Assembly (NCBI GenBank): GCA_964422625.1
Contig: CAYRBN010000001.1
Coordinates: 1-47,226, forward strand
Direction: 5' to 3'
Length of the DNA stretch: 47,226 bases
Source of the DNA: an uncultured bacterium
GTDB lineage: Bacteria > Hydrothermota > UBA3073
Shown: positions 3,127-46,618 of the stretch, piece by piece
How positions within the stretch are numbered: the first letter of the stretch is position 1
Layout of the letters: each line of letters opens with the position of its first letter
Position numbers and translations under genes: made by a program
Notes under the pieces: model-generated
Told to the model about the DNA's origin: nothing
Seen by the model: only the letters and a program-made list of their open reading frames with translations
Databases searched by the model: none

Positions 3127-3179
3127 CTCAGTAGCTTGCTACTGCTTGCATTACCAAGGTAATGCACTCCATTGAAACT

Positions 3180-3345
3180 GACACCTGACCAAAGACGGTT
3201 ATCAGTTATCGGTTATCGGTAAAGACCAACATCAAAGACAGTTATTAGTTATTGGTTATTAGGGCAATGGGGTACTTCATCCTTTTTCCTTTATCCCCCT
3301 ACCACCTGCCACCTAACAAACTAACTAACCAACTAACTACCTGCC
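3180..3345 (-). repeat. concatenated tandem-heptamer arrays downstream of acs
   Basis: Read on the minus strand: gttagtt-type, ggataaa-type, aataacc-type (ctaataaccaataactaataac), ccgataa-type and caggtgt-type units, each in 2-4 degenerate copies. Confidence 0.85.
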
Positions 3346-3352
3346 ACCTGAA

Positions 3353-6689: not shown

Positions 6690-6779
6690 AGTCCACCTCC
6701 TGTTAACGGTTTGCGTGTTTGCGAAATTAAAGAAACTTAATAATCTACGAAAACCTGCGTCCTAAAAAGAGAGCATTTT

Positions 6780-7865
6780 TCAATTTTCATTTTTCATTTT
6801 GCATTGAGCAATGGTCCCTCCCCCCACCACTATTTCACCATCATAAAAGACTATTGCCTGCCCTGGAGTGATCGCCATCTGTGGTTCTACGAATTTTACC
6901 AGAATATTCTTTCCATCAAGAGGTGAAATCTCTGCGGGGATCTCTTTGTGACGATATCGTATCTTTGCCTTTAATTTAACTGGCGCTTTTAATTCTTTTA
7001 TAGCTATCCAGTTCAGATCAGAGGCTATAAGCTCATCTCCAAATAAATCCTCTCTTTTGCCCACCATAATAGCATTTCGCAGATAATTCATAGCAATCAC
7101 ATATAATCGCTCTATTGATTTTGATAGATTTAGCCCTTTACGTTGTCCTATAGTATAAAATGGGATTCCCCGGTGTTCACCAATAATCTTGCCCTCTTTA
7201 TCCAATATAGGTCCTGGCTTGGACGCAAAAAACTGGGAATAACCTCCAGCAATGAAATCCTGACTCTCCTGTCTCTCATCAACACCAAGCCCGAGGTCTT
7301 TTGCTATTTTCCTTGTCTCTTCTTTGGTGTAAATGCCCAGAGGAAAAAGAGAGAATCCAAGCTGCTCCTGAGATAAGGAGTAAAGGAAATAAGACTGGTC
7401 TTTGTTTTCATCCACACCCTTTTTTAGGAGATGTCCATCTCCTGTTTTATTCTGTTCTATTCGGGCATAATGACCTGTCGCGAAATAATCAAACGAACCC
7501 TTGAGCCTTTCAATCAAAGCACCAAATTTCACCAAGCAGTTACACCTGATGCAAGGGTTAGGAGTTCTTCCTATGAGGTATTCCTTATAGAAATAGTCCA
7601 AAACATAGCTCTTATACTCCTGTTTCATATCAATTATATTGAGTGGGATATCTAATCTCTCTGCCACCTTTCTGGCATCTAATATATCTTCTCTCTCTCC
7701 TGGTCCATAGCATGCATGCCGAAGCCCTTCCTTGCAAGTGCTCTCCCCATCCCATATCTTCATTGTTACTCCGGAGAGTTGATACCCCTCTTCTTTAAGT
7801 AGAGCGGCGGCAACGGATGAATCCACGCCTCCACTCATTGCTATGACAACCCGCAATTTAGACAT
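6780..7865 (-). CDS. mnmA: tRNA 2-thiouridine(34) synthase
   Basis: PP-loop VVIAMSGGVDSSVAA, the CIRCN cysteine and the MnmA C-terminal barrel region. 361 aa. Confidence 0.9.
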   Translation of the reverse strand: MSKLRVVIAMSGGVDSSVAAALLKEEGYQLSGVTMKIWDGESTCKEGLRHACYGPGEREDILDARKVAERLDIPLNIIDMKQEYKSYVLDYFYKEYLIGRTPNPCIRCNCLVKFGALIERLKGSFDYFATGHYARIEQNKTGDGHLLKKGVDENKDQSYFLYSLSQEQLGFSLFPLGIYTKEETRKIAKDLGLGVDERQESQDFIAGGYSQFFASKPGPILDKEGKIIGEHRGIPFYTIGQRKGLNLSKSIERLYVIAMNYLRNAIMVGKREDLFGDELIASDLNWIAIKELKAPVKLKAKIRYRHKEIPAEISPLDGKNILVKFVEPQMAITPGQAIVFYDGEIVVGGGTIAQCKMKNEN

Positions 7866-13791: not shown

Positions 13792-13848
13792 GGGATTTTT
13801 AATTAGATTAGTCAACAGGTGGAGTGGCTTGCTCCATCTGTTATTGCT

Positions 13849-13985
13849 AATATTAGCACACAGATTTACACAGATAAAACTGATTTACACAAATATAATT
13901 CATTATAAAGATTTTTTTAAATCTGTGCCTATCTATTCAATCTGTGTAAATCTGTGTGCTTCTCCTCTTTTTTCCTTGACTTTTT
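13849..13985 (+). repeat. palindromic MITE-like element, copy 1, carrying an outward TTGACT box
   Basis: Perfect 21-nt terminal inverted repeats AGCACACAGATTTACACAGAT (13855-13875 / 13940-13960). About 137 bp near-identical to 24753-24891, including ...cttgacttttt. Confidence 0.85.
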
Positions 13986-14004
13986 ATAAAGAATGTGTTA
14001 AAAT
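13976..14004 (+). promoter_or_regulatory. promoter TTGACT-17-TAAAAT facing the DegT gene
   Basis: -35 at 13976-13981 (inside the repeat element) and -10 at 13999-14004. The CDS starts about 480 nt downstream, with a MITE in between. Confidence 0.55.
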
Positions 14005-14104: not shown

Positions 14105-14386
14105 GGTTCTTCGCGCTTTTAGTTGGTTCAAATGCCGACCAAATGCTATAGGGATTTGAGAATATGGCTTATTGTATTTAAGAGGTAATACCTTTTTCGT
14201 TTTATAAGTAGGAGCTTTCTAAAAAACGGCTTTCAAAAATGTAGGCACGATTTCAAATCGTGCTAGCACAAATTGAATTTGTGCCTACAAATGCTCTAGG
14301 TGAACAGTCTTATATACAAATATGCAAAGAGCGCAAATTCAAGGAGGTTTGTCCATATATTCTACCAACTAAAAGAGCGAAGAACC
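14105..14386. mobile_element. non-autonomous MITE: 23-bp TIRs and 8-bp target-site duplication
   Basis: GGTTCTTCGCGCTTTTAGTTGGT (14105-14127) matches the reverse complement of 14364-14386 at 22/23. ATAAAAGG occurs directly on both sides (14097-14104 and 14387-14394). No ORF inside. Confidence 0.85.
14240..14289 (+). repeat. 50-nt double-hairpin element (copy inside the MITE)
   Basis: TGTAGG-[GCACGATTtcaaATCGTGC]-ta-[GCACAAATTgAATTTGTGC]-CTACA. A reverse-complement copy lies at 36067-36116. Confidence 0.85.
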
Positions 14387-15578: not shown

Positions 15579-16388
15579 GGGGGTGTTCAGGAACTCCTTA
15601 AGTCCTTGAGGGAGAGCGAAAGCCCCTGTGTGGATTTCAGAAGTGTAATATTTTAAGAGGGGTGGCGGGGGTCTAAATATGGCGGGGGATCTCTGTGATG
15701 CTATGAGAAAAGACCATATCCCCCCTGGATATGTTGGTATTGGAGCAAGGTAGAGTTGGACAGATCTAAATAGCGATCTGAGAGTCTTTATCTGGTTTTT
15801 TATAAACTCTCTATCGTAGAATGGAGACTGGGATTGTGCAATAAATATTCCCCTATCTCCCAGAACCTCTTTACATCTTGAAAGGAACTCTTTTTTTGCA
15901 AGAGAGAGAGCCGAACCTTCCGGGTCTGTTGAATCAACAAAGATAATATCTGCCTTATCAGTTTTCTTTATCCATTTTGCACCATCCTCATAGTAGATTT
16001 TCACCCTTGGGTCAGAAAGCCAGGGACATCCAAATATCTTTCTTGAGACCGCAGTAACCCTTTCATCTATCTCTACAAGAGAGACCCTGTCCACATCATA
16101 TTTTAGGACCTCACGAACTGAAAATCCATCTCCACCACCTATTATAACTATATCCTTTGGAGAGGAATGAGAGAGCATAGCGGGATGAATCAACATCTCA
16201 TGGTATATATACTCATCTCTTTCCGTGAGCATAACCTTGCCCGAAAGAAGCAATACCTTATCAAACTCATAAGTATCAATAACCTCTATCTCCTGAAATC
16301 CACTTTTCTCCCTGTGGAGCAGGCCCTTCACCCGCATAACAATCCCTACATTAGGTGTATGAGGTTCTATAAAGAGAAATCCCTCCAT
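15573..16388 (-). CDS. speE: spermidine synthase (polyamine aminopropyltransferase)
   Basis: IIGGGDGFSVREVLKY and VDSTDPEG motifs. Start set to ATG 16388. Confidence 0.9.
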   Translation of the reverse strand: MEGFLFIEPHTPNVGIVMRVKGLLHREKSGFQEIEVIDTYEFDKVLLLSGKVMLTERDEYIYHEMLIHPAMLSHSSPKDIVIIGGGDGFSVREVLKYDVDRVSLVEIDERVTAVSRKIFGCPWLSDPRVKIYYEDGAKWIKKTDKADIIFVDSTDPEGSALSLAKKEFLSRCKEVLGDRGIFIAQSQSPFYDREFIKNQIKTLRSLFRSVQLYLAPIPTYPGGIWSFLIASQRSPAIFRPPPPLLKYYTSEIHTGAFALPQGLKEFLNTPL

Positions 16389-16389
16389 T

Positions 16390-16415
16390 CTACTCACTAC
16401 TCACTACTCGCTACT
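16390..16415 (-). repeat. gtgagta heptamer array spanning the speD stop and the speD-speE spacer
   Basis: Minus strand reads agtagcgagtagtgagtagtgagtag. It encodes the last speD codons (..SSE) and the stop. Confidence 0.85.
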
Positions 16416-16769
16416 CATATCCACAACCCCTCTCTTAATGAAGGATATTTTGACATGCTCTGGCCGAAATGTGGTTTTCAAATGTTCTATAGCGATGTCT
16501 ACATCAATACTATCACTGCACGAGAAAAAATCTATTGCAGCATAGTTGTGCTCTGGCCAGGTGTGCACCGAGAAGTGAGATTCTGCTATTATTACAACGC
16601 CTGATACACCATAAGGTTTGAAATGATGAAATCTGGAGGTTATTACTCTGGCATGAGATAGGCAGGCTGCTTCAAGAAATGCCTCCTCTACTTTTCCTGA
16701 GTCAGAAATTAGAGATGGCAAACACCCATAGAACTCTATAATGGTATGTCTCCCTAATATCTTTTCCAC
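16404..16769 (-). CDS. speD: S-adenosylmethionine decarboxylase proenzyme (small bacterial/archaeal type)
   Basis: Self-cleavage and active-site context IIAESHFSVHTWPE. 121 aa, GTG start. Confidence 0.85.
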   Translation of the reverse strand: MEKILGRHTIIEFYGCLPSLISDSGKVEEAFLEAACLSHARVITSRFHHFKPYGVSGVVIIAESHFSVHTWPEHNYAAIDFFSCSDSIDVDIAIEHLKTTFRPEHVKISFIKRGVVDMSSE

Positions 16770-16929: not shown

Positions 16930-16957
16930 TTGACTTTCTCTATTTCTGTGTTATAAT
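16930..16957 (+). promoter_or_regulatory. promoter TTGACT-16-TATAAT for sppA (divergent from the speD promoter)
   Basis: -35 at 16930-16935 and -10 at 16952-16957. The upstream block agtgagattagtggacgcacttttttc resembles the one at 34870-34903. Confidence 0.65.
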
Positions 16958-17123
16958 CAGAAGGAGTGGTGAGTTGAGCAATTGCGTATAAAAGGGGTAT
17001 AATGTTCAAAACAGAGAAGTTTAGCATTTGGATATTGTCTGTAATTTGGTGCTTGAGATTTGGAATTTAGAGTATGAGGGTATTTAAGGAGGTATTTTTG
17101 ACAATCTTTGACCAGGAGGTTGT

Positions 17124-19325
17124 ATGTACATCGTACTACTAAGCCTGGTCACATTCCTGTTTGATGGGGGTGTGGCAACAGTAGGGAGGTCTTATGCCCC
17201 GTTCGTAAATCCAGCAGGCATTGCAATATCGCCGGGGTTGGAGACCTCATATCTATTAGGTATAAATGGAGGGGAGGCGACCCATACCATTGGTCTATCT
17301 ATGGGAGGTATCGGGTTCGGAACAGAGATTAGAGGCGCAGAACGGAATTTTATCTTATCAAGTGGGCTTCGGATAAAAGACTGGATATATTTTGGTTCAG
17401 GATATAGATTTGGCGACATTGGGGGATATAACATTGGGACTATCATAAGACCGCACAGGTTTCTCTCCATTGGAGTGGTGGGAGATAAGATTGATGATAG
17501 ATATCTGGTCTCATCAGGGATTGGGGTGAGACCAGGGACAGACAGGATAACCCTCACCATTGATGGTGTCCTTGAACAGGATAAGGTGCCTGATTATAGA
17601 TTTGGGGCGAGGCTTGAACCAGTTGATGGAATATTTATAGAGGGCTATTGGGATGAAGACATCTGGAGGGCAGGTATCTCCCTATCTCTTGGCAATATTG
17701 GATTTGGTGGTAACATTGACGGAGCAGACAATTATAACGCGGGTATGGTGTTTTCAAGAGAGAGACACCCTACATTCAAAAAACCTGCCACAAGGTTTGC
17801 CGAGCTCATACTAAAGGGCTCTTATCCAGAACTTGAGAGGAGTGGTATCTTCTTTGAGAAGGTAACTGCACCTTTCTATAAACTACTTTCAAGGATAGAA
17901 GAGCTATCAAAAGAGGATGCCTGTAATGGCATACTTCTAGAACTGAAAGGTGCCCGGATGCGTATGAGCCAGTGGGAGGAGCTAAGAGACGCACTCGTTG
18001 ATTTCAAGGCAGAGGGCAAAAAGGTATATATCTATGGAACCCATTATGGATTTGGCTCTCTCTATCTCGCATCTGTGGCAGATTCAGTATTCCTTCATCC
18101 AGCAGGAATGGTCTTTATTCCGGGGATCCAGGCAAGGATGATATACATAAAAGGGACGATGGAGAAACTTGGAATAGAGGCACAGATAGAGAGGATTGGG
18201 AGGTTCAAATCCGCATCAGAACCATTTGAGAGAGAAGATATGTCAGAAGAGGATAGTCTCCAGCTTATGGAGTATCTCAGGGACATATACTATCCAACAA
18301 TAGAGACAATTGCAGAGGCAAGGGATATCTCACCAGACAGTCTAAAGAGACTGATAAACGAGGGGATCTTCTTTACAGGAGAGTCTGCACGAGAAGCAGG
18401 ACTCATAGATGCAGTCTGGGAGAAGAATAGAGTTGATTCCCTTGTTTTTGGAGAAAAGAGAGATAGATTCAGGAAAGAGAGGGAAGTGAAGAGAGGATGG
18501 AGAGAAGATAAAGAGAAGGAGAAGATAGCACTGATAATTGCAGAAGGGGGTATCATAGAGGGCAGATCATCAGACGGGTGGATAGGCTCAGATGATATGG
18601 TGAAGACACTTGAAAAGGTGAGGGATGATAAGAGCATAAAGGCGGTTGTGTTCAGAGTGAACTCTGGAGGAGGTTCTGCCATTGCATCAGAGATGATTGG
18701 CAAGGCGCTCAAGGATGTAGCAGGAGAGAAACCTGTTGTTGTCTCTATGGGGAGTGTTGCTGCTTCTGGTGGATATTATATATCTGCTTATGGAGACAAG
18801 ATATACGCAAATAACTCTACACTCACAGGTTCAATCGGGGTGATATGGGCTGGCTTTCTTTTCAAGGGGCTTTATGACAAGATTGGGATCTCCTGGGACA
18901 TAGTAAAATTGGGTAGGCATGCTGATATACTCTCTGACATCCGTGAGTGGGATGACTATGAACGGGAAAAGATAAGGGGAGCTACGGAGTGGTTCTATGA
19001 TAGATTCACATCTACGGTTGCGGATGGAAGAGATACGACAGCTGAATACATACACTCGATTGGAGAGGGAAGGATATGGAGCGGAGTGGATGCAAAGGAG
19101 ATTGGACTGGTTGATGAGATAGGCGGGATGTTTGCCGCACTGAAATCTGCTCAAGAGATGGCAGATATTGAAGAGAGAGATGTTGTGATATACCCAAAAC
19201 CAGAAAGGGGGTTCCGCTTTGACCCTACATTTGGGATCAGTAGTTCTCTATCATCTATCAAATCTCTTCTCTCATCAGAATATCTCTACATTATGCCATA
19301 TAAGATAGATGTGGAGGTGAGGTGA
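17124..19325 (+). CDS. sppA: signal peptide peptidase SppA (67K type, two S49 domains) with about 230-aa beta-rich N-terminal extension
   Basis: VVFRVNSGGGSAIASE and SMGSVAASGGYYIS motifs. RBS context is GGAGGTTGTATG. Confidence 0.85.
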   Translation: MYIVLLSLVTFLFDGGVATVGRSYAPFVNPAGIAISPGLETSYLLGINGGEATHTIGLSMGGIGFGTEIRGAERNFILSSGLRIKDWIYFGSGYRFGDIGGYNIGTIIRPHRFLSIGVVGDKIDDRYLVSSGIGVRPGTDRITLTIDGVLEQDKVPDYRFGARLEPVDGIFIEGYWDEDIWRAGISLSLGNIGFGGNIDGADNYNAGMVFSRERHPTFKKPATRFAELILKGSYPELERSGIFFEKVTAPFYKLLSRIEELSKEDACNGILLELKGARMRMSQWEELRDALVDFKAEGKKVYIYGTHYGFGSLYLASVADSVFLHPAGMVFIPGIQARMIYIKGTMEKLGIEAQIERIGRFKSASEPFEREDMSEEDSLQLMEYLRDIYYPTIETIAEARDISPDSLKRLINEGIFFTGESAREAGLIDAVWEKNRVDSLVFGEKRDRFRKEREVKRGWREDKEKEKIALIIAEGGIIEGRSSDGWIGSDDMVKTLEKVRDDKSIKAVVFRVNSGGGSAIASEMIGKALKDVAGEKPVVVSMGSVAASGGYYISAYGDKIYANNSTLTGSIGVIWAGFLFKGLYDKIGISWDIVKLGRHADILSDIREWDDYEREKIRGATEWFYDRFTSTVADGRDTTAEYIHSIGEGRIWSGVDAKEIGLVDEIGGMFAALKSAQEMADIEERDVVIYPKPERGFRFDPTFGISSSLSSIKSLLSSEYLYIMPYKIDVEVR

Positions 19326-19500
19326 AGGGAAAAGGAAAAAGGATAAAGGATAAAGGATAAAGGATGAAGGAGTGAGGCGTAGGGCGTAGGGCGTAAGGAG
19401 TAGGGCGTAATTGATAATCAGTTCCCTGACACCTAACACCTGACACCTGATTTGACCTAATAACCAATAACTAATAACAAATAACCAAGCTTACTGCTTA
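19326..19500 (+). repeat. concatenated tandem-heptamer arrays downstream of sppA
   Basis: Successive blocks: ggataaa x4, gcgtagg x4, acacctg x3-4, aataacc x4 (ctaataaccaataactaataac, identical to the acs-side copy) and cttactg x2. Confidence 0.9.
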
Positions 19501-19520
19501 CTGATAAAGGGGGGGGTTGT

Positions 19521-19742
19521 ATGGAAGAGGCAAGAATAAAAAGTGCAATAGGCAAAATAAGACCAGCAATCCAGAGAGATGGAGGAGATGTGAAGTTTCT
19601 CTCCTTTGATGGCGAAACGGTCAAGGTCAAGCTTATCGGTGCCTGCTCATGCTGTCCAATGGCTGGAATGACCCTGAAGAATACAATAGAAAAAGCGATA
19701 AAGAGTGAAGTGCCATCTGTGAAGAAGGTTGTTGCGGTATAG
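19521..19742 (+). CDS. NifU C-terminal-domain (Nfu-type) Fe-S cluster carrier
   Basis: 73 aa with IRPAIQRDGGDV...GACSCCPMAGMTLK. RBS is a G8 run. Confidence 0.8.
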   Translation: MEEARIKSAIGKIRPAIQRDGGDVKFLSFDGETVKVKLIGACSCCPMAGMTLKNTIEKAIKSEVPSVKKVVAV

Positions 19743-19859
19743 GAAGGTCAAAAAGTCAAAAGATCTAAAGGTCATCCTTAATGACATGGTAACCCATTAA
19801 CCTGATTACTGATAACCGATTACTGATAACTGGTTACTAACTACTGCTTACTGATAGGG
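19743..19859 (+). repeat. tandem-heptamer arrays between nfu and tRNA-Ala
   Basis: gtcaaaa-type units are followed by eight units of gattact/gataacc/ggttact/gcttact. Confidence 0.85.
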
Positions 19860-19935
<76 letters not shown>

Positions 19936-20282: not shown

Positions 20283-21958
20283 TCATCTCAAAATAACTAT
20301 CTTTTGAGTCATTGCTTCTGTTCCCGTAGTCAATTTTACAAAGTATACTCCCGTAGCTATATCTTTCACACTCCATATCACACTCTCTTCACCTGCAGGT
20401 AACCTTCCATTTATAAGTTCTGTAACCATCTGCCCCAACAGATTATAGATTCTGAGTGAGACATCAGCCTCTTCTTTTAGCATAAACGAAATCCGGGCAT
20501 TATCTTTGATTGGCTTTTCTATCTCTAAGATAGAAAAGGTATAGCTATATTCTTCCACCCCAACAGTGATGATGTCTCCCAGGTCTCCGGGCAGGATCTG
20601 ATAACTACCATCATAAGGTGGTTCATTATCGTTCTGGTCTAAAATTCCTACTACACTTATGGGCCAGGAGGGTTCTTCACTGCCATCTATATTTGTGTTA
20701 TTATATATCCTTAATGTAACGGTATCTATTCCATCTTCATCTGTTATAAGTATGTTGGCACTCACCCCTGAAGGGGGCCAGGGTGTGGCATCCGCCCTGT
20801 TCACACTGTCAACCCTGATGAGTCTCCCCTCATAGGTTTCCTCAAAGTCTGATAGGAGAATCAAGGATGGTGAGGGAACACGGTTAGAGCCTAATCTTTT
20901 TAGCCTTTCTATACCCCTTATCTGGGTCATTCCAAAAGACTGATATACTTCTCCTGCAACCCTTATTGAATCCCCCCTCCATATCTCTGGGTCATATCTT
21001 GGGATCCATACCATAATCCCGGCTTCTCCATCCTGGAGGAAAATGCTGTGTGGTGATACAATATACCATTCAACAGTCGCAACCCCCTCAATCATTACCA
21101 TCTCACCCTTCTTATCGGGAATAAAGTCAGCATCTCCATCAACTTTTACGGAGGAAATCGTGGATATATCTCCCCAGAACCAGGCAGTATCAGTAATCAT
21201 AAGATTACCAGCAAGGTCATTTAATCCAGAGACAACAAGTCTATAGAAGAGATTAGATTGTGGGGATGTAGTGAGATGAACAAGCATAGGATCAACTGGA
21301 TCAAGTTGAGCAGATGTTATGCTTATTCCCTGGTCAATGCTATAATTGGCTGTGTCCTCTGCAGAGGCCTTGATTAATGGCTCATTGAATCTGATATTTA
21401 CAGAATCCTCTCCCCAGGAGAAAGCAGTTATTATGTAAGGTGGGGTAATATCTGGACCACCTGTAACGAATGCGGAATCTACATAGACACTGGCAGAGAT
21501 AATAGTATCCCCCCAGTCTACATCATATACCCTTATCTCTACATGCACGGTCTCGGCCTCTAAAGGGGCAAGCGCAGATAGGGCTAATCCCTGCCAATCT
21601 GTGCTATCAACGGAATAATCTGTATTATCGTTTGATATCCAACTGCCATCACCCCTAAACCACCTCACGGTGCCTCTCACTCTCCCGTAAGGGTCATTAT
21701 CATATACCCAGAAAGTATATGCATAGATTGCGGCAGCAGTGGCAGGAAGTTTCTGGTATATCCAGCGTGTAGGCGTTGTAGCCCACAGGAGTTTGCAGGC
21801 ATATATTCCTGTGTAGATTATACTATCTTCTTGCTCTGCTGTGAGGCCCGGACCTGATGTGCTCCAGTCATCCAGTACCCCGGCTGTCCATTCCTCAGGT
21901 GGTTTTGTCCACTGGTAACTCCCGAAAGGAGAGATAGAATCAATATCAGCTCACACAT
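20283..21958 (-). pseudogene. T9SS-sorted surface protein (Ig-like/SbsA-type domain plus Por C-terminal domain) with a frame break after the signal peptide
   Basis: GGAGG+ATG 21958 gives signal peptide MCELILILSLLSGVTSGQ in one frame, which stops at 21818. The mature region is open in the -1 frame from 21950 to 20283 with no start before GTG 21680. The C-terminus VSLRIYNLLGQ...GVYFVKL is a T9SS CTD. Confidence 0.6.
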
Positions 21959-22981: not shown

Positions 22982-23134
22982 CAAAAAACTTTAATCACGA
23001 AGGCACAAAGACACGAAATGCAGGTGATCAGTTATCGGTGGTCGGTAATCTGAAATCTTGGTGCCTCTGCCTTATGTAATAACAATCTGTGATTCATATT
23101 ACACAGGGTGAATGTCCTGGCGGTGAATAAAAAC

Positions 23135-23176
23135 ATTTGCAATTTGCATTTTACAATTTGCAATTTGCATTTTACA
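23135..23176 (+). repeat. exact 2 x 21-bp tandem repeat (atttgcaatttgcattttaca)
   Basis: Units at 23135-23155 and 23156-23176 are identical. Confidence 0.9.
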
Positions 23177-23178
23177 AT
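23150..23178 (+). promoter_or_regulatory. candidate promoter TTTACA-17-TACAAT generated by the 21-bp duplication
   Basis: -35 (23150-23155) comes from unit 1 and -10 (23173-23178) from unit 2. It sits about 25 nt before ATG 23203, which has a GGGGG RBS. Confidence 0.45.
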
Positions 23179-23202: not shown

Positions 23203-24606
23203 ATGGAATATATCTCTCCACAACCAAAAGAGAAGAGCCGAAAGTTGATTGAGAGGGATAGAAGGTTGATGTTTTCTGCACATACACGTTCAGATGAGCT
23301 TCCTCTTGCAGTAGATTATGCAAAGGGGGTCAGGATATGGGACATTGATGGAGATAGCTATCTTGACTTTACTGCGGGATATGCTGTCTGTGCAACAGGA
23401 CACTGCAATGAGGAGATTATCAGGGCTGTGGAAGAACAGACCCGTAGGCTGATTCATATCGGGGGTAGCGACTTCTACTATGAACCCCAGGTTACTCTTG
23501 CAGAAAAACTGATAGAGATTACTCCTGGTTCTTATGATAAGAGGATCTATTTTGGAAACTCTGGGGCAGAGTCCCTGGAAGCAGCTCTAAAGATAGCAAG
23601 ATATTTCACAAGACGACCACAAGTTATCTCATTCTTCGATGGGTTTCACGGAAGAACATATGTTGGAATGTCACTTTCAGGAAGTAAAAAAGTTCAAAAA
23701 GCACACTTCTCTCCCCTTATCCCAGAGGTTACCCATACATTCTATCCATACTGTTATAGATGTCCACTCAATCTTACATATCCAGGATGTATTAAGGAAG
23801 AATTTGAGGGGGTTCCACTTATCTCTTGTGTGGACTTTCTTCTGAATACAATATTTAAACAGATCTGTGACCCTGAAGATGTTGGGGCAATATTTGTTGA
23901 ACCTATCCAGGGAGCGGGAGGATATATAGTTCCACCAGAGGAGTTTCTTTTACTCCTCTCTATGATAGCAAAAAAATGGGGTATTATTCTTGTTATGGAC
24001 GAGATACAATCAGGGCTTGGAAGGACAGGAAAGTGGTTTGCCTCTGACCATTTTGGGGTTGAGCCTGATATAGTATGTATAGCAAAGGCATTGGGAGCAG
24101 GGTTGCCAATATCTGCAACGGTTGGACGGGCAGATCTTATGGATGCGGCTGTGGATAAGAGGGCATGGGTTAAAGGTTCTCACGGTTCCACATTTGGAGG
24201 CAATCCGGTTGCTTGTGCAGCAGGCATAAAGACACTTGAACTGCTTGAGGGAGGAGTGATGGAGAATGCAGGCTCTGTGGGCAGTTTCATAATGGAGAGA
24301 TTAAAAGAGATAAAAGAGAAACATAGGATTATAGGGGAAGTGAGGGGCAAGGGACTTATGATAGGGATAGAACTGGTGAAGGATAAGAAGACAAAGGAGA
24401 GGTTCCCAGAAAATCTTACAGGTGATGGAAAGGGGATAAAAGAGGTTGTGATTGGTTCCTGTTTCAAGAAGGGCTTATTCGTTCTTGGATGTGGCAGAGA
24501 TACAATAAGGTTCTCACCACCGCTCGTATTAAGAGAAGAAGAGGCAGAGGAAGGACTTTCAATATTTGAGAGCGCGATTGAAGAGATAGAGGGATTAGTT
24601 GGTTAG
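23203..24606 (+). CDS. class-III (ArgD/GabT-like) PLP aminotransferase
   Basis: GNSGAESLEAALK, DEIQSGLGRTGKWFA and STFGGNP motifs. Start set at MEYISPQ. Confidence 0.85.
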   Translation: MEYISPQPKEKSRKLIERDRRLMFSAHTRSDELPLAVDYAKGVRIWDIDGDSYLDFTAGYAVCATGHCNEEIIRAVEEQTRRLIHIGGSDFYYEPQVTLAEKLIEITPGSYDKRIYFGNSGAESLEAALKIARYFTRRPQVISFFDGFHGRTYVGMSLSGSKKVQKAHFSPLIPEVTHTFYPYCYRCPLNLTYPGCIKEEFEGVPLISCVDFLLNTIFKQICDPEDVGAIFVEPIQGAGGYIVPPEEFLLLLSMIAKKWGIILVMDEIQSGLGRTGKWFASDHFGVEPDIVCIAKALGAGLPISATVGRADLMDAAVDKRAWVKGSHGSTFGGNPVACAAGIKTLELLEGGVMENAGSVGSFIMERLKEIKEKHRIIGEVRGKGLMIGIELVKDKKTKERFPENLTGDGKGIKEVVIGSCFKKGLFVLGCGRDTIRFSPPLVLREEEAEEGLSIFESAIEEIEGLVG

Positions 24607-24690
24607 GTAGTTAGTTTGTTAGTTGGTTAGTCAGTTACAAGTTACAAGTTACGAGTAACAAGTCAAACAAGAAACTCGTTACTTGTTACT
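24595..24690 (+). repeat. tandem-heptamer arrays (gttagtt-type, then gttacaa-type) starting inside the last codons of the aminotransferase
   Basis: ttagttggttaggtagttagtttgttagttggttag is followed by gttacaagttacaagttacgagtaacaagt. Confidence 0.85.
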
Positions 24691-24752
24691 GTTCGTATTG
24701 TGGGAGGCATCTCCTGATGCCGATGGTCAAGGTCAGGAGACCTTTCCCACAT

Positions 24753-24891
24753 AATATTAGCACACAGATTTTCACAGATAAAACTGATTTACACAAATAT
24801 AATTCATTATAAAGATTTTTTTTGAAATCTGTGCCTATCTATTCAATCTGTGAAATCTGTGTGCTTTTCCTCTTTTTTTTCTTGACTTTTT
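24753..24891 (+). repeat. palindromic MITE-like element, copy 2, carrying the holA -35 box
   Basis: TIRs are AGCACACAGATTTTCACAGAT (24759-24779) and ATCTGTGAAATCTGTGTGCT (24846-24865). The interior is near-identical to copy 1. Confidence 0.85.
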
Positions 24892-25866: not shown

Positions 25867-25867
25867 A

Positions 25868-25948: not shown

Positions 25949-26001
25949 TTCTTACGCTGGTTCAATAAAAAGGAAAAAGGATAAAGGATAATGAGGAGCT
26001 T

Positions 26002-28098
26002 ATGATTTTTCTTTATTTAGTCATTTTAGCCATCCCTGTATGGTCTACTGATACCTGGGATGGAGGAGGGGGACAGTTCATCTGGAATGATACAAGTATG
26101 TATCTATATTCAGAGGGGTTATGTGGAGGAAGATTCCATGGCAAGATTGTACTCTATACCCCTTACCTTTCAGAACCACATTTTGTCAATCTTGAGGGAC
26201 TGAAGGAACTACATGTCATTATCCAATTACCTGATGGGAGGATACTTATAGCAGGGGAAAAGAATAATAGCGGAGTTATATATCTGAGTGAGGATGGAGG
26301 ATATACATGGAGTGAAGCAGTGCTACCCCCAGATATTCTCTCTGTCAGATCTCTAACTTATTATGATGGAAAATTTATTGCAGGAGTTACAGATATTCAT
26401 AATCGGGGATATATACTCCTTTCAGATAATGGGATAAGCTGGACACTAGAGAGTGGACATATGGAACATTCTATTTTGTCTCTCCTTGTAAGGGCGGATG
26501 GATACGGGTTTGCAGGAACAGGAAATCGCGGATGGCTGTACTGGACAAATTTTGCAAAGGATTGGAGTGGGCTAACAGTGATAGGATTATTAGGTATCAG
26601 AACCATAAACCATCTTTACCAGACATCCTCTGGCAGGATATATGCGGCAACAAGATCTACAACCAATGAGGGAAGGGTGTTCTATTCTGATATTGGTGGA
26701 ACAGGTGGATGGGAACTTATCCCTTCTATATTTGGACAGTCTGCATACTCTATAGCAGAGGATGATAAAGGGAATCTATATGTGGGAACAGGAGATTTTG
26801 ATGGAAGGGTATTTGTGATACGGGAAGATATTGTGAGTGGGACCCCTGCGACCGGAACCCAGAGGGTCAATTCTGTCCTCTCTGATTTTGATGGAGATAT
26901 ATACATTGGAGCAACCTCTTTTGAGGGTGGAGTCAATGTTGGAAGAATCCTCGTCTTCTCTAATGGTGACTGGGTCCACTCGGTCAAGGTGGACACATTG
27001 AGAGCAATAAGGGTTATTTTCATCACCCAGGATGGGAAGTTGGTCTTTGGTGGTGAAGGTAGCTATATCGGGGTTTACGGACATAGGAGAGAGGGTTTTC
27101 TGGTCTCTTCAATCTATGATGTTGGCACTGATAATGGGAGTGTCCGATACCGCTATATTGATTGGGATGGTACCCTAAACGGTGGAGCGATCACGGTAAG
27201 GGTAAGGACAGGAACATCCACTGATACATCCCAATATCTCCCCTGGGAATACTGCCCCCCACTGGAGAAAGGACAGTTCCTTGAGGGTGTAAATGGTATC
27301 AATCCTGGGGATAGATATATCCAGTACAGAGTGGACATCTCATCGCCCTCATCTGCCCTGACACCGCTATTTCATAATATTAGGGTATTTTACACGATAG
27401 ATACTGTTGGTCCTATAATTACGAGTACGGAAGTATTTATGGAACCAGAATCATATCCATATATAGATTCTTTAGACCTTGTATTCAGTGAACCGACAAA
27501 CCGTCCTGATATATATATAGGAAACATTGACAGGGTTCTATCTCTCTCAAATAATCACTCATGGCTTTCAAGTGATGGGTTTATAGGAGGGATTGGCTGG
27601 GTCTCTGATGAGAGACTCCGAATAAGGCTTCTCTTCTTTGGTGACACGCCTGCAACAGTGCGTATTGGGGATATGATATATCCCGACTCATCCACAATAA
27701 GGGATGAATATGAAAATCCAAGTGTTAGGCCTGTTGCTATTAAACAGATCGGTATAGAAGAGAGAGAAAAATTAAGAATTACGAATTATGAATTAAGAAT
27801 TTATCCAAATCCGTTCAGAGGCTTCGTGCGTATAGCGTATAGCGTAATGCGTAATGCGTCAGAGAAACACTCTACGCCTAACGCTCTACGCCCTACGCCT
27901 TACGCTTTACGCATCTACGACCTCTCAGCCCGCCTCATCCGCACCATACCGATTACCGAACACCGATTACCGATTACCGAAGTAACCTGGGATGGCAGGG
28001 ATAAACAGGGAAACGAGGTAAAGTCAGGGGTATATTTTATAAGATTGGAGGGGACCTCTTTCCAGGAGATAACAGAAAAGGTTATACTGATCCGATAA
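26002..28098 (+). CDS. secreted BNR/beta-propeller protein with T9SS C-terminal sorting domain
   Basis: Signal peptide, BNR motifs (SEDGGYTWS, SDNGISWT) and a C-terminus IYPNPF...LRIYDL...VTWDGRDKQGNEVKSGVYFIRL. Confidence 0.8.
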   Translation: MIFLYLVILAIPVWSTDTWDGGGGQFIWNDTSMYLYSEGLCGGRFHGKIVLYTPYLSEPHFVNLEGLKELHVIIQLPDGRILIAGEKNNSGVIYLSEDGGYTWSEAVLPPDILSVRSLTYYDGKFIAGVTDIHNRGYILLSDNGISWTLESGHMEHSILSLLVRADGYGFAGTGNRGWLYWTNFAKDWSGLTVIGLLGIRTINHLYQTSSGRIYAATRSTTNEGRVFYSDIGGTGGWELIPSIFGQSAYSIAEDDKGNLYVGTGDFDGRVFVIREDIVSGTPATGTQRVNSVLSDFDGDIYIGATSFEGGVNVGRILVFSNGDWVHSVKVDTLRAIRVIFITQDGKLVFGGEGSYIGVYGHRREGFLVSSIYDVGTDNGSVRYRYIDWDGTLNGGAITVRVRTGTSTDTSQYLPWEYCPPLEKGQFLEGVNGINPGDRYIQYRVDISSPSSALTPLFHNIRVFYTIDTVGPIITSTEVFMEPESYPYIDSLDLVFSEPTNRPDIYIGNIDRVLSLSNNHSWLSSDGFIGGIGWVSDERLRIRLLFFGDTPATVRIGDMIYPDSSTIRDEYENPSVRPVAIKQIGIEEREKLRITNYELRIYPNPFRGFVRIAYSVMRNASEKHSTPNALRPTPYALRIYDLSARLIRTIPITEHRLPITEVTWDGRDKQGNEVKSGVYFIRLEGTSFQEITEKVILIR
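27769..27980 (+). repeat. four heptamer arrays embedded in-frame inside the T9SS CTD coding region
   Basis: aattaag x4 (27769-27802), gcgtata/gcgtaat x4 (27828-27859), the inverse word ctacgcc x5-6 (27872-27912) and ccgatta x4 (27949-27980). Confidence 0.85.
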
Positions 28099-29571: not shown

Positions 29572-29576
29572 ATATA

Positions 29577-29615
29577 GTAGTGAGTAGTGAGTAGCGAGTA
29601 GTGAGTAGTGAGTAG
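29577..29615 (+). repeat. gtgagta heptamer array just after the rtcB stop
   Basis: The sequence reads gtagtgagtagtgagtagcgagtagtgagtagtgagtag. Confidence 0.9.
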
Positions 29616-29655
29616 GGCTAACCCTTGCGGTTACCCAAAGAGTAGAGAGTTTAGT

Positions 29656-30618: not shown

Positions 30619-30695
30619 TATCATGGACCACTGTGATTCAGACAGTGGACAGTGAAATAGAAAGCAAGTTTAGAACACGAAGTGTCTGTAACATT

Positions 30696-30749
30696 GGAAT
30701 TTAGGATTTTGAAATTGTTTAGGATTTAGAGTTTAGGATTTAGAATTTG
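30696..30749 (+). repeat. gaattta/ggattta heptamer array
   Basis: The sequence reads ggaatttaggattttgaaattgtttaggatttagagtttaggatttagaatttg. Confidence 0.85.
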
Positions 30750-32278: not shown

Positions 32279-33276
32279 TCTGCTTCTATCTGATACTGAC
32301 TATTCTCCTCTCTTCTGATACCGTTTTAGAGGACACAATAATACGAGATTTTTTTGAAATCCCCATCTCTCGTATTGCAAAGGAAGAGAGCTTTATAAGA
32401 ATGGCAATCAAGGAGGGGATAGTAAGAGATAGACCTTTAATACTTCTGAAACCAGAGGAACTCAAGCCTGTAAAATTTACGAGGGAGAGGGAGAGAGAGA
32501 GACTTATCCATCAGGACTTCTTATTAGAGGAAGAGCGAGAGGTCCCTTCTATAATTGAGGTACCAGAAAGGCATAAGATAGAGATAAGACCAACCGAGGA
32601 GCTGGTAAGGATAGAGATAGAGCCAGAGCTGAGGGATGAGGAACTTATTCTTGGTGAGGAGATAGAGGTGCTAAGAATGGATGTAATTAGGGTTTTAGAA
32701 AAGGGGAAGAGAGATTTCACCCCTCTTATCTCTACTGCCATTTCTGTCGGCACTGTCCCTGTCAAGATAAGTGCAATCAAGGCCCTGGAGTCAGAAGAGC
32801 CCAGCATTGCCATACCTATGTTGAAAGAGGCATTAAGTGACCAGGCATGGAAGGTCCGACTTGAGGCGGCAAAAGGACTTGCCAGACGGGGTGAGGAAGA
32901 TGGATACAGGGAGATGAGGGCAGCGCTTCTGATAGAAGAGCCAGAGGCAAAGAGTGAGGCGGCAAGGGTGCTTGGTGAGATTGGTGATGTCAGATCATTA
33001 CCTGAGTTGAGAAGGTATATCTCCCATCCTAACCCGGATGTGAGAAAGCAGGCGATCATCTCACTTGGGATACTGAAGGACCAAGCATCTGTCCTTCTAA
33101 TAGAGTCTGCCCTATCAGATCCAGATGTGGAGGTGAGAGGCTCAGCCGCAAGAGCGCTTGGGGAGATAGGTGATTCTACTGCCATTCCAGCTCTCAAGAG
33201 AGTTATGCTTTCTGATGAGTGTTCAGTTATCAGGGTCTTTGCTGCGGAAGCCATATTGAGAATAGAACAAAAGTAG
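32275..33276 (+). CDS. membrane-anchored Glu-rich / HEAT-repeat (PBS-lyase HEAT-like) protein (paralog 2)
   Basis: ATGA overlap with the upstream stop. N-terminal anchor and E-rich repeats. Clear HEAT units such as DPDVEVRGSAARALGEIGDSTAIPALK. Confidence 0.6.
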   Translation: MICFYLILTILLSSDTVLEDTIIRDFFEIPISRIAKEESFIRMAIKEGIVRDRPLILLKPEELKPVKFTRERERERLIHQDFLLEEEREVPSIIEVPERHKIEIRPTEELVRIEIEPELRDEELILGEEIEVLRMDVIRVLEKGKRDFTPLISTAISVGTVPVKISAIKALESEEPSIAIPMLKEALSDQAWKVRLEAAKGLARRGEEDGYREMRAALLIEEPEAKSEAARVLGEIGDVRSLPELRRYISHPNPDVRKQAIISLGILKDQASVLLIESALSDPDVEVRGSAARALGEIGDSTAIPALKRVMLSDECSVIRVFAAEAILRIEQK

Positions 33277-33305
33277 AGAGTAGAGAGTTAAACAGGAGGC
33301 GTTAG

Positions 33306-34130
33306 ATGGTCTGTCCACAATGTAGAAACGCTATTGAACAAAATTGGTTCTTCTGCGCATGGTGCGGAGTAAACATTGTATATTATCATAAAGCGCTAGA
33401 GTACATAGACCATGGAAAACATCTTGAGGAGATATATAGATACGATGAGGCACTCACATCTTATCAGAAAGCAGTTTCATTTGGTATAGCATCAGATACT
33501 GTCGATCCTTTACTGGAAAAAGTATCTAAATTGCTTGATAGGTTTATCTATCTGAGTGACAAAGGTAGATCACTGAAAAGGAAGGGAAAGTGGAGAGCTG
33601 CTTATCTATCACTCAGGAAGGCATCTTTATTAAATCCGATAGATGATTCGATCAAAAGAGATTTAACTTTTCTTAAGGACAAGTTACAGAAAAGGTTACG
33701 GAGAAAGATTATATATATAGTAACAATTTTCACTCTTCTTGTTGTTGGAGGAACTAGTTATCTCTGGTATATCAATACTCCACAGTATTTAGCAAGAAAG
33801 ACACTGATAAAATCCACATATTCTACAAATGCAGTTGTCCGCAGGAGAGCAATTGAGGCAATGGGCAATGTGGGGGACAGGAGATTCCTTCCGATTATAA
33901 GAGAGTACCTTGCGGATTCGGATACCTATGTAAGACAAGAGGCAATAAGGGCTTTGTTCAAGATTGAAGATACTGCAAGTGTGGAGTATATAAGACCCCT
34001 TATGAAGGACGATGATGAGAGAGTGAGGATAACCGCTGCAAAACTACTCGCAGATATGGGTGATTCCTCTGCAATGAACTATTTGAGAAGATTCGTGAAT
34101 AGAGGAGAGAGAAGTGAGAGTAGTGAGTAG
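33306..34130 (+). CDS. zinc-ribbon / TPR-like / single-TM / HEAT-repeat protein (paralog 3)
   Basis: CPQC...CAWC, TM segment IIYIVTIFTLLVVGG and HEAT units (VRRRAIEAMGNVGDRRFLPII..., DERVRITAAKLLADMGD). RBS is AGGAGG. Confidence 0.6.
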   Translation: MVCPQCRNAIEQNWFFCAWCGVNIVYYHKALEYIDHGKHLEEIYRYDEALTSYQKAVSFGIASDTVDPLLEKVSKLLDRFIYLSDKGRSLKRKGKWRAAYLSLRKASLLNPIDDSIKRDLTFLKDKLQKRLRRKIIYIVTIFTLLVVGGTSYLWYINTPQYLARKTLIKSTYSTNAVVRRRAIEAMGNVGDRRFLPIIREYLADSDTYVRQEAIRALFKIEDTASVEYIRPLMKDDDERVRITAAKLLADMGDSSAMNYLRRFVNRGERSESSE

Positions 34131-34350
34131 TGAGTAGTGAGTAGAGCGTAAGGCGTAGAGCGTAGGAAGTAGAGCGTAGGGCGTAATCGGTTATCAGTAA
34201 TCGGTAAAAACCAGACCTCCCTCAGTCATTAATCTTGACCTTTGACTTTTAGACTTTTACACCTGGCACCTGACACCTGGCACCTATAACTTATTTGAAT
34301 TTGTGATTTGGAATTTGTTTGTGATTTGTGATTTGAAATTTGGAATTTGT
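34113..34350 (+). repeat. long concatenation of heptamer arrays (six or more words)
   Basis: In order: gtgagta, gcgtaga/gcgtagg, cggttat/cagtaat, cttgacc/tttgact, acacctg/gcacctg and gaatttg/tgatttg blocks. The first block encodes the last codons of the upstream ORF. Confidence 0.9.
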
Positions 34351-36296: not shown

Positions 36297-36340
36297 CAGG
36301 AGGTTTCTCCCACAATGGAGATACCTCCCACATTCGCTAA

Positions 36341-36391
36341 TCAGTTATCAGTAACCGGTAAAGACCAACTAACAAACTAACCAACTAATTA
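36341..36391 (-). repeat. heptamer arrays downstream of the M23 peptidase gene
   Basis: accaactaacaaactaaccaactaatt is identical over 27 nt to 46591-46617 at the gmk 3' end. Confidence 0.85.
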
Positions 36392-43731: not shown

Positions 43732-43774
43732 CCCTTCCCTTTTTCCTTTATCCTTTTTCCTTTATCCTTTTTTT
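43732..43774 (-). repeat. ggataaa/ggaaaaa heptamer array spanning the coaBC stop and the coaBC-udg spacer
   Basis: The minus strand reads aaaaaaaggataaaggaaaaaggataaaggaaaaagggaaggg and encodes ..KKRIKEKG-stop. Confidence 0.85.
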
Positions 43775-46386: not shown

Positions 46387-46441
46387 TAAACCCTCCTTTT
46401 GTAATGTTAAGTATTGTGAAAAAACTTAACCACAGAGAAAA

Positions 46442-46483
46442 GAATTGAGAATTATAAATTAAGAATTGAGAATTGAAAATTGG
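46442..46483. repeat. gaattga/aaattaa heptamer array flanked by the short inverted repeat CACAGAGAAAA/TTTTCTCTGTG
   Basis: The sequence reads gaattgagaattataaattaagaattgagaattgaaaattgg. The same word family occurs inside the CDS at 27769-27802. Confidence 0.8.
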
Positions 46484-46589
46484 AGTTAGCTATTTTTCTC
46501 TGTGCACTCTTTTAGTGCAAAAATCCTCATTAAGATATACTACGACTTTTATATTAGAGAGCACAGAGAATCCTTTGAGAATCACAGAT

Positions 46590-46618
46590 AACCAACTAAC
46601 AAACTAACCAACTAATTT
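46590..46618 (-). repeat. gttagtt-type array forming the last codons and stop of gmk
   Basis: The minus strand reads aaattagttggttagtttgttagttggtt and encodes ..K-L-V-G-stop. Confidence 0.85.

Follow-up and report, generated by a model that had tools for sequence, protein, structure and literature searches.

What are the short tandem repeats that fill many spacers between genes in the DNA of an uncultured bacterium, and why do most of them read in the same direction as the genes around them? The question is raised by a stretch of 47,226 nt (40.6% G+C; NCBI assembly GCA_964422625.1, contig CAYRBN010000001.1), which we call the window. An earlier note, made from the letters of the window alone, had described its spacers as strings of degenerate tandem heptamers (7-nt words such as GGATAAA, GCGTAGG and GTGAGTA) whose orientation is locked to the upstream gene. 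We have followed these arrays through the window, through a 56,103-nt contig rebuilt from the window and the locus L086 (simply 'the contig' below), and through other genomes. We consider it probable that they are heptanucleotide simple-sequence repeats of the same kind as the short tandemly repeated repetitive (STRR) sequences, the TAACTGA repeats and the G-rich heptamers of other bacteria, tolerated as weakly useful, unstructured spacer RNA.

Position and orientation of the heptamer arrays

Tandem Repeats Finder (TRF) returned 75 rows for the window, 29 with period 7 and 11 with period 14, 21 or 28, together 40 of the 75. A detector of match/mismatch runs found 22 period-7 arrays, against 0.8 in Markov-1 shuffles of the window; at the other periods from 3 to 13 the same detector gave 0–9 arrays against about 1 in shuffles, the runner-up being period 12 (9 arrays) when the multiple 14 is left aside. 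With a stricter score, 16 runs remained at period 7 and 0–1 at the others from 4 to 12. The window thus holds head-to-tail 7-nt units in excess of chance, as heptanucleotide simple-sequence repeats do. TRF and reading of the sequence confirmed tandem heptamers in all twelve intervals listed in the earlier note. Its description is borne out in that the arrays are real, mostly intergenic, strung together from several words, free of hairpins and polar. Its list was incomplete, lacking 6774–6805, 17026–17073, 23135–23178, 25967–25994 and 33272–33288, as well as four arrays within the coding region 27770–27980.

We discount almost entirely an origin of the arrays in assembly or scaffolding, although two scaffolds do have N-gaps placed exactly within GGATAAA/GCGTAGG arrays: L082 (from NCBI), over window positions 19326–19410, and L086, at 3506–3605. 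Against such an origin, the window belongs to a 56-kb scaffold assembled independently from several samples, and the arrays recur in ENA, Joint Genome Institute (JGI) and NCBI assemblies of near-identical strains. These assemblies agree independently, the flanks are clean and the differences are whole units; each single-word array is moreover shorter than a sequencing read.

The arrays are unevenly distributed over the contig. Co-directional spacers (6.1 kb) hold 27 arrays, which make up 12% of their bases, divergent spacers (1.46 kb) hold none where 4.5 would be expected (P ~0.01), and convergent spacers (1.26 kb) hold none at the detection threshold used. Coding sequence (CDS; 47.3 kb) contains five arrays, four of them in a single gene. 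The earlier note had reckoned that arrays equally frequent at 5′ ends and inside genes would speak against its picture; genes are array-poor (0.11 per kb, against 4.4 per kb in co-directional spacers), but array occurrence at 5′ ends is common.

Within spacers the placement of the words follows a kind of grammar. Next to stop codons, or overlapping them, are GTGAGTA, GTTAGTT, GGATAAA and GCGTAGG; next to ribosome-binding sites (RBSs), and once to the 5′ end of tRNA-Ala, are CTTACTG/TTACTGA, ATTTGCA and GAATTTG; ACACCTG, AATAACC and TAACYGA hold positions midway between the stop-proximal and start-proximal words. In 10 of the 45 genes of the contig the array itself supplies the stop codon (window positions 16404, 24606, 33276, 34130, 43748, 46604, 6780 and 19325; L086 7810 and 3492), so that about one fifth of genes borrow their stop codon and final 2–4 residues from an array. 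Unrelated proteins can in this way share a tail: speH, prfA and one HEAT-repeat gene all end in AGTAGCGAG-TAG-TGAGTAG, giving SSE*, and an aminotransferase gene and gmk both end in TTAGTTGGT-TAG, giving LVG*. The stop arithmetic of the earlier note is correct, each sense word containing TAA, TAG or TGA and the complements TACTCAC, TTTATCC and CCTACGC being free of stops in every cyclic frame. This pairing of a stop-rich sense strand with a stop-free antisense strand largely comes from C-depletion. The words are G-rich and C-poor in sense, as had been noted, but this partly mirrors a transcript-strand skew of the whole contig, where the sense strand of coding sequence has 24.3% G and 16.7% C.

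Orientation relative to transcription was counted on the contig for ten word families. The sense:antisense ratio is 5:0 for each of GTGAGTA, GCGTAGG and GTTAGTT, 4:0 for AATAACC, 3:0 for both ATTTGCA and CTTACTG, and 4:1 for GAATTKR and for GGATAAA, whose single antisense array lies ~5 kb outside the window; TAACYGA (5:3) and ACACCTG (4:3) are mixed. Pooled, the ten families give 42 majority and 8 minority orientations (simulated P = 3e-4). The five words for which it had counted 15 of 15 occurrences in the same sense (GTGAGTA, GCGTAGG, GTTAGTT, AATAACC and GGATAAA) come to 16 of 16 in our recount of the window and to 23:1 on the contig. An unbiased BLAST of all spacers, each oriented by transcription, found array-type matches in the same direction 25 times and in the opposite direction 7 times.

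The lock is however not general, since ACACCTG, TAACYGA (the CGGTTAT/GATTACT words of the earlier note) and GAATTGA occur both ways, with the GAATTGA array at 46439..46483 as a counter-example in the window. Nor is it a lock to the upstream gene: the array 17026–17073 in the sppA leader sits in a divergent spacer, and a GTTAGTT array at L086 3797–3850 starts 2 nt past a consensus promoter (TTGACA-17-TATAAT). Only at 36337..36390, a convergent spacer, does the window link polarity to an upstream gene. What the orientation follows is the transcript, and not the gene upstream in particular. Over 47 kb it reverses twice together with the direction of the genes; it therefore goes with transcription, and a replication-strand cause was rejected.

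Four arrays, built from words also found in the spacers, run in frame through the C-terminal region of a cargo gene of the type IX secretion system (T9SS), in and at the edge of its sorting domain (Table 1), and one frame stays open throughout. It is kept open by orientation (CTACGCC, the antisense of GCGTAGG), by a stop-free variant (TTACCGA in place of TAACTGA) and by the phasing of unit variants, the TAG and TAA of two GCGTATA and two GCGTAAT units falling in just two of the three frames. The match to Por_Secre_tail is 96 residues long, ~21 more than the 75 positions of the model, and its 21.8 bits are below the Pfam threshold of 27. No array was detected in the corresponding region of a 49%-identical orthologue (P0002) upstream of rtcB in L005 and L006. 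The in-gene arrays show a tolerance filter at work, and a T9SS sorting domain evidently tolerates four arrays in frame. A 7-nt slip either way would truncate the sorting domain, so secretion could in principle phase-vary; the protein is identical on the three contigs that carry its gene, and for comparison with phase variation we note that the arrays avoid promoter-bearing (divergent) spacers.

The arrays are predicted to be unstructured as RNA. GTGAGTA and GGATAAA arrays have a folding energy of 0 kcal/mol, and the spacers 19323–19523 and 34128–34370 are less structured than their dinucleotide shuffles (z = +1.1 and +2.9). Against mononucleotide shuffles the mean z is -0.5 for array-rich spacers and -2.5 for other spacers, which carry hairpins resembling repetitive extragenic palindromic (REP) sequences. 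Intrinsic terminators were considered and rejected: none of 14 terminator-like sites between 16300 and 36290 lies inside an array, and the number of sites equals the shuffle expectation. We also give next to no credence to a regulatory role through G-quadruplexes (G4), such as has been suggested for GGGAATC and GGGGAYT. Some GGG tracts do occur in GCGTAGG arrays, and in L085, the one locus returned by a metagenome scan for sppA relatives, the sppA orthologue (68% identity) is followed directly past its stop codon by (GGGGTAAT)5 on the sense strand, and also by an AAAGGAA array. But a scan of the contig for at least four G3 tracts gave a single motif, outside the arrays, and most words, such as GTGAGTA, GTTAGTT, AATAACC and GAATTTG, are without G tracts. 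With no G4 motif in any array, this reading is largely refuted for the window.

Unit turnover, copying and other genomes

Near-identical strains differ in the arrays by whole units. Over 7.7 kb, L083 (JGI) matches the window at 99.7% identity, and only one of its indels exceeds 1 nt: a GGATAAA unit is missing (-7). L084 has indels of -13 and +7 nt, both confined to arrays; at 19424..19507 it shows an extra AATAACT unit. Every indel of more than 1 nt thus falls in an array. In L005 and L006 a C-free word, AATGTTR, lies 4–11 nt past stop codons and is retained after the same gene, with ~6 units in one and ~12 in the other. Strain indels confined to arrays, together with the AATGTTR difference, show that arrays slip in whole units, and the unit-number polymorphism is of the slippage type.

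Several arrays are also identical at separate loci, imperfections included. The imperfect 28-mer TGAGTAGCGAGTAGTGAGTAGTGAGTAG, with the same variant unit GAGTAGC, is found unchanged at 16390, at 29588–29615 and at the 3′ end of prfA. Positions 36364–36390 equal 46591–46617 (27 of 27 nt), and 19330–19353 equal 25968–25991 (24 of 24 nt). A 65-nt block, consisting of an AATAACC array, GTCTTTGATGTTGGTCTTTACC and a TAACYGA array, is shared at 98.5% identity by 3189–3263 and the spacer 3′ of prfA, with one extra unit. Two junctions recur as well, GTGAGTA then GCGTAGG, and GCGTAGG then AATCGGTTATCAG. Because identical imperfect arrays and the 65-nt block recur at several loci, we infer that arrays have been copied between spacers and have not merely grown in place; with these shared arrays, blocks and junctions, the spacers are mosaics put together from a limited set of dispersed modules.

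The RtcB protein of the window (28102–29571) is 77–79% identical to proteins from metagenome-assembled genomes (MAGs) of Candidatus Stahlbacteria / candidate division WOR-3 and less than 63% identical to all others, and the NCBI source label of the T9SS protein is candidate division WOR-3 bacterium. Judged by these protein matches, the host is a WOR-3/Stahlbacteria-like bacterium. The earlier note had called it a non-cyanobacterium with T9SS cargo, and two cargo proteins with Por_Secre_tail domains and relatives in WOR-3/Stahlbacteria agree with that. The contig otherwise carries housekeeping genes (acs, speH/speE, sppA, nifU, rtcB, ychF, dnaB, coaBC, gmk and prfA). None of the window proteins could be tied to the arrays. 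In Rfam and tRNA scans of the window the only find was tRNA-Ala (19860–19935), and the arrays match no known RNA family.

The 80 loci used for comparison, from diverse phyla, were fetched with RtcB. Most have 0–1 period-7 arrays; the rich ones are L005 and L006 (WOR-3), L008 (Armatimonadota, 9 arrays) and L066 (Deltaproteobacteria, 12), and four loci of Desulfobacterota (L071, L073, L059 and L037) have 4 each. Within WOR-3, L001–L003 have about 1 array per 10 kb, and no period-7 arrays were found in L013 and L028. Over all loci other than the window, 83 arrays are intergenic and 29 lie in coding sequence, though 86% of the sequence is coding, and among arrays at most 30 nt from a stop codon 12 of 14 have G>C in sense (P = 0.013). 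The earlier note had proposed comparing orthologous spacers in related MAGs; in related species the words are not conserved at such spacers (L005, L006 and L085). That arrays occur in WOR-3, Armatimonadota and several MAGs of Desulfobacterota argues against an explanation by horizontal transfer centred on cyanobacteria. A shared mobile element carrying the same words across phyla was rejected, since scrambled heptamers form arrays equally often in viral contigs: among 2.9 million, (GGATAAA)3 occurs in 23 and (GTGAGTA)3 in 15, and their scrambled controls in 18 and 56.

The MAG contigs of L008, L066, L071 and L073 (Armatimonadota and Desulfobacterota) bear dense multi-word heptamer arrays. Inverted pairs of arrays, potential long hairpins, lie at L073 1324/1369 and L008 12608/12845.

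Catalogue of the arrays and neighbouring elements

Table 1. Heptamer arrays in the window (strand, composition and setting)
Position	Strand	Array	Setting
3175..3352	-	Mosaic, in sense order: CAGGTGG; GTTAGTT (period 4/8, 3313-3339); GGATAAA (3275-3297); AATAACC (3240-3263); TAACCGA/TAACTGA (3195-3223); CAGGTGT (3175-3191)	3′ of acetyl-CoA synthetase gene (3353-5344, minus); ACACCTG word is antisense here
6774..6805	-	AATGAAA	Overlaps stop of gene 6780-7865 (tail KMKNEN*)
16388..16418	-	GTGAGTA	Whole speH-speE junction; gives speH stop (tail SSE*), ends just before speE ATG
17026..17073	+	GAATTTG/GGATTTG, degenerate	sppA 5′ leader, divergent spacer, downstream of promoter-like site 16930-16957
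19326..19410	+	GGATAAA x5-6 (19326-19371), then GCGTAGG x5 (19372-19410)	Stop-proximal after sppA; C-poor sense strand; unit number differs between strains
19424..19507	+	ACACCTG x3-4 (19424-19452); AATAACC x4 (19455-19489); CTTACTG x2 (19489-19507)	Up to poly-G RBS of NifU (19521-19742)
19749-19764		GTCAAAA pair, weak
19800..19856	+	TTACTGA/TAACCGA/TAACTGG (TAACTGA family, forward)	Ends 3 nt before tRNA-Ala
23023-23046		TAACYGA copy, reverse-oriented	Shares the stretch 23023..23178 (+) with the ATTTGCA array
23135-23178	+	ATTTGCA, 21-nt super-period	Directly upstream of aminotransferase start
24595..24690	+	GTTAGTT, then GTTACAA with short inverted copy (24673-24690)	GTTAGTT gives aminotransferase stop (tail LVG*)
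25967..25994	+	GGATAAA	10 nt upstream of T9SS cargo gene
27770..27980	+	Four in-gene arrays (next four rows)	C-terminal region of T9SS cargo gene 26002-28098, translated in frame
27770-27801		AATTAAG	N-terminal edge of sorting domain
27828-27859		GCGTATA/GCGTAAT	Inside sorting domain
27870-27919		CTACGCC (antisense GCGTAGG)	Inside sorting domain
27947-27980		TTACCGA (stop-free variant)	Inside sorting domain
29574..29618	+	GTGAGTA	Begins 3 nt past rtcB stop; REP-like hairpin next
30694..30749	+	GGATTTA/GAATTTG	Directly upstream of gene at 30761
33272..33288	+	GAGAGTA pair	Gives stop of HEAT-repeat gene 32275-33276
34107..34349	+	Mosaic, in order: GTGAGTA; GCGTAGG (34141-34187); reverse TAACYGA (34182-34208); ACACCTG (34257-34286); GAATTTG (34293-34349)	3′ of HEAT-repeat gene 33306-34130 (GTGAGTA gives its stop, tail SSE*), up to RBS of gene at 34368
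36337..36390	-	TAACTGA-like copy (36337-36361) and GTTAGTT (36364-36390)	Convergent spacer, downstream of minus-strand M23 peptidase gene
43737..43773	-	GGATAAA/GGAAAAA	Overlaps coaBC stop (tail KEKG*); minimum free energy 0 kcal/mol
46439..46483	+	GAATTGA	Between two minus-strand genes, hence antisense to transcription
46589..46617	-	GTTAGTT	Gives gmk stop (tail LVG*)

One 26-nt motif, TACTGCTTACTGATA and then a G run, stands before both the NifU start (19492–19517) and tRNA-Ala (19842–19867); the run is a G8 Shine-Dalgarno sequence at NifU and the 5′ end of the tRNA itself at tRNA-Ala. Three successive genes at 30761–34130, each with an N-terminal zinc ribbon and HEAT / PBS-lyase-type repeats, are flanked by array-rich spacers, a coincidence only. 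The second T9SS cargo gene (20283–21680) is the chief substitution hot spot between the otherwise 99.7%-identical strains, its differences clustering in 20500–21530.

Other repeated elements are present as well. REP-like hairpin families (GGTCTGCGGACAGGGAYAARYCCTGTCCCTACA; GTAGGGACAACCCTTGTGGTTGTCCG), distinct from the arrays and present in both orientations, share their spacers at 3065–3130, 25866–25951, 36191–36300 and 29612–29637. A small hairpin, GTGGAGCA-TCTT-GCTCCAC, has at least six copies on the contig, often directly past a stop codon (8989–9010, 13816–13840, 28100–28125 and 36124–36150; L086 3930–3955 and 6550–6575). A 52-nt double hairpin (GGCACGATTTCAAATCGTGC and GCACAAATTGAATTTGTGC) has inverted copies at 14238–14289 and 36067–36118, 96% complementary, with a partial third at L086 5161–5185. 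Finally, a 141-nt repeat (13848–13990 and 24752–24895, 95% identical) with an internal inverted repeat rich in CACAGATTT words ends with a promoter close to consensus (TTGACT-16-TATAAT), which lies upstream of two genes that are unrelated.

Known heptamer systems and the case for tolerated spacer repeats

Knowledge of bacterial tandem heptamers goes back to 1990, without a demonstrated general function. The STRR heptamers of heterocystous cyanobacteria were reportedly described in that year by Mazel et al.; their consensus words are CCCCAGT (STRR1), TTGGTCA (STRR2) and CAACAGT (STRR3). Elhai is said to have treated the small dispersed repeats of cyanobacteria in 2008. In enterobacteria, bacterial interspersed mosaic elements (BIMEs) combine REP units from a small motif vocabulary in intergenic DNA, at 3′ ends and within operons. 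The window resembles BIMEs and the small cyanobacterial repeats in its intergenic mosaics of a few short dispersed motifs and differs in that REP units are hairpins, whereas the arrays are non-pairing direct repeats (~0 kcal/mol), the window's hairpin families being separate. It resembles the STRR sequences, the parallel drawn in the earlier note, in having several distinct tandem heptanucleotides dispersed over the intergenic DNA of one genome. The host is, however, not a heterocystous cyanobacterium, and no tandem pair of STRR1–3 words is present here even with one mismatch. The STRR parallel is fair, but two other systems are closer.

The first is the TAACTGA repeat of marine Beggiatoaceae, some cyanobacteria and five Bacteroidetes (MacGregor 2015; PMC4679880). 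These repeats form intergenic tandems with a forward-orientation bias, often right before start codons; forward units hold stops in all three frames, so that arrays overlap the stop of the upstream open reading frame (ORF), and ORF-internal copies occur only in reverse, which reads stop-free. Strains differ by 7-nt indels, TTACTGA is interleaved and other heptamers are mixed in, and binding by S1, Csp or Csr was proposed for the BOGUAY repeats. The CGGTTAT/GATTACT family of the window is this same word (TAACYGA/TTACTGA, at 19800–19856 and 3195–3223). The contig has an exact (TAACTGA)2 at position 48125, ~0.9 kb outside the window, and the in-window copies at 3196–3223 carry at most one mismatch. 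As a class, the arrays also share with the TAACTGA repeats the array-borne stops and the restriction of coding-sequence arrays to antisense, stop-free or frame-phased forms. There are differences too. WOR-3 is not among the published host phyla. BOGUAY has essentially one dominant word, whereas at least ten coexist here; TAACTGA is only one of these families and among the least locked, with 5 forward and 3 reverse intergenic copies, to which come a forward copy within a coding sequence and the array of the related word CTTACTG. Arrays here are mostly stop-proximal, not start-proximal, and only two of ten TAACYGA-type copies adjoin an RBS or tRNA (19489–19507 and 19800–19856), the others being mid-spacer or stop-proximal. 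Whole multi-array blocks are moreover duplicated between loci.

The second is the G-rich heptamers GGGAATC of Xanthomonas and GGGGAYT of Nostoc, which are stop-proximal and G-rich on the sense strand, are enriched between aligned ORFs and are seldom found in coding sequence or between divergent ORFs (Rehm et al. 2015; PMC4692102); their transcription is shown there in transcriptome data of Xanthomonas axonopodis pv. citri only. The distribution over co-directional, divergent, convergent and coding DNA reported above (27, 0, 0 and 5 arrays) and the 23:1 sense bias of the stop-proximal words are alike. But those repeats were chosen for G-quadruplex potential, which the window arrays mostly lack, a single word was studied per genome, and strand use is about balanced overall in Xanthomonas and favours the non-coding strand in Nostoc. 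GGGAATC and GGGGAYT were not found as tandems in our DNA. The STRR sequences are cited in PMC4692102 as three heptanucleotides of Calothrix PCC 7601. Among long simple-sequence repeats, those with 7-nt units form the commonest class in most prokaryotic genomes examined by Mrazek, Guo and Shah (2007), sporadic across taxa and with polymerase slippage proposed as their origin; as summarised in PMC4679880, that survey does not describe polarity relative to the transcript, mosaics of several words or imperfect arrays copied from locus to locus. Nearly all features of the arrays have thus been reported for TAACTGA repeats and G-rich heptamers. WOR-3 is a new host and not a new phenomenon, the kind being known from cyanobacteria, giant sulfur bacteria, Bacteroidetes and Xanthomonas; our literature search found no link between WOR-3 and tandem repeats.

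The arrays gain and lose whole 7-nt units, as in slipped-strand mispairing. If they are indeed tolerated simple-sequence repeats, arrays and composite blocks would be copied between spacers by ectopic recombination, gene conversion or other mobilisation, yielding the mosaic. They are met almost only in RNA that is transcribed but untranslated (last codons, 3′ trailers, intercistronic spacers and 5′ leaders), and mostly in the orientation that gives a C-poor mRNA-sense strand with a stop in each of the three frames and no ability to fold. A filter of tolerance or selection would act on that strand and set both orientation and position, as an array at a gene end must halt translation, must not fold and must spare promoters. 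An array landing on a gene end would terminate translation within at most 7 codons, add no hairpin and leave the next RBS single-stranded. The net role may be that of three-frame stop pads at 3′ ends and of A/U/G-rich single-stranded landing sequence beside start codons. We do not think that the arrays are a dedicated signal.

A fairly unlikely alternative is that the arrays are multivalent sites on mRNA or single-stranded DNA for sequence-specific proteins (cold-shock/OB-fold proteins, S1 or other RNA binders), one protein per heptamer, the words marking 3′ trailers and 5′ leaders and so setting translation, coupling or mRNA stability. The recurrence of the same words at many loci, their strong polarity, the predicted single-strandedness and the division into stop-abutting and start- or tRNA-abutting words would all suit such binding, as would TTACTGA/TAACYGA directly before an RBS and a tRNA, a placement also seen in BOGUAY with its proposed S1, Csp and Csr binding (PMC4679880), and the altered reporter expression after deletion of a heptamer repeat in Nostoc (bioRxiv 10.1101/2022.06.06.494920). 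However, the words differ at orthologous spacers of related species, unit number varies among 99.7%-identical strains, several words occur in both orientations, at least ten words would need many readers or one very loose one, and no candidate binder was identified. We regard as decidedly unlikely the fuller version in which a transcript-polar 'heptamer vocabulary' with stop-proximal and start-proximal classes is read by one or more dedicated single-stranded-RNA-binding factors and rewritten fast by copy-paste and slippage. Were it true, the vocabulary would organise ribosome release, re-initiation, mRNA processing or stability between cistrons, and layers of this sort would have had several origins, in WOR-3, Armatimonadota, Desulfobacterota, cyanobacteria and Beggiatoaceae.

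At the other extreme, the arrays could be functionless debris of slippage and ectopic recombination, their polarity arising passively from transcription-linked strand asymmetry and from purging of copies that disrupt genes or promoters. Rapid turnover with polymorphic unit number, the sporadic occurrence within WOR-3, the commonness of heptamers among long simple-sequence repeats (Mrazek 2007, as summarised in PMC4679880), the unexceptional showing of the window words beside scrambled controls in viral contigs and the contig-wide G>C skew all lend themselves to this. We still hold it unlikely, given the contrast between co-directional spacers, 12% array, and divergent spacers without any, the identical imperfect arrays that share one reading frame at the ends of three unrelated genes, position-specific word classes and spacers that are consistently unstructured. 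Very improbable, in our view, is a relation to Rho, in which G-rich, C-poor sense RNA would act as an insulator that resists Rho loading after the ribosome leaves, so avoiding operon polarity, while the C-rich, G-free, unstructured antisense RNA would offer Rho an ideal place to load and so put an end to antisense transcription into the gene. The stop-proximal words are indeed C-free in sense, G-free in antisense and unstructured, polarity follows transcription, and the 12:2 excess of G>C near stops extends across phyla; but the words of the downstream halves of spacers (AATAACC, ACACCTG and CTTACTG) contain C and are G-poor in sense. Cyanobacteria, the richest heptamer hosts, are not known to have Rho, which also counts against it.

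Several points weigh against our preferred reading of the arrays as tolerated simple-sequence repeats. The contig counts cover 56 kb of one genome, and we infer every functional step. Polarity is incomplete (8 of 50 in the minority orientation), its counts are inflated or not fully independent because several arrays travel jointly in composite blocks, and part of it may be a general mutational or selective skew of the transcript strand, since coding sequence likewise has G>C. Reuse at many loci of distinct word classes near stops and near starts is also what sequence-specific readers would produce, and no transposase or other candidate for the copying was linked to arrays in the window.

For annotation of MAGs, the arrays mean disrupted short-read scaffolds, spurious antisense ORFs and misleading cues in the calling of starts and stops. 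For the biology of these repeats, a single 56-kb contig shows that arrays are prone to slippage and are copied from one locus to another as well, in the form of imperfect units and of blocks of several arrays. What the WOR-3 case adds to the known heptamer systems is a new, deep-branching, uncultured host phylum, evidence for the copy-paste of imperfect arrays and blocks, gene ends written by arrays, and arrays carried in frame through a T9SS protein.

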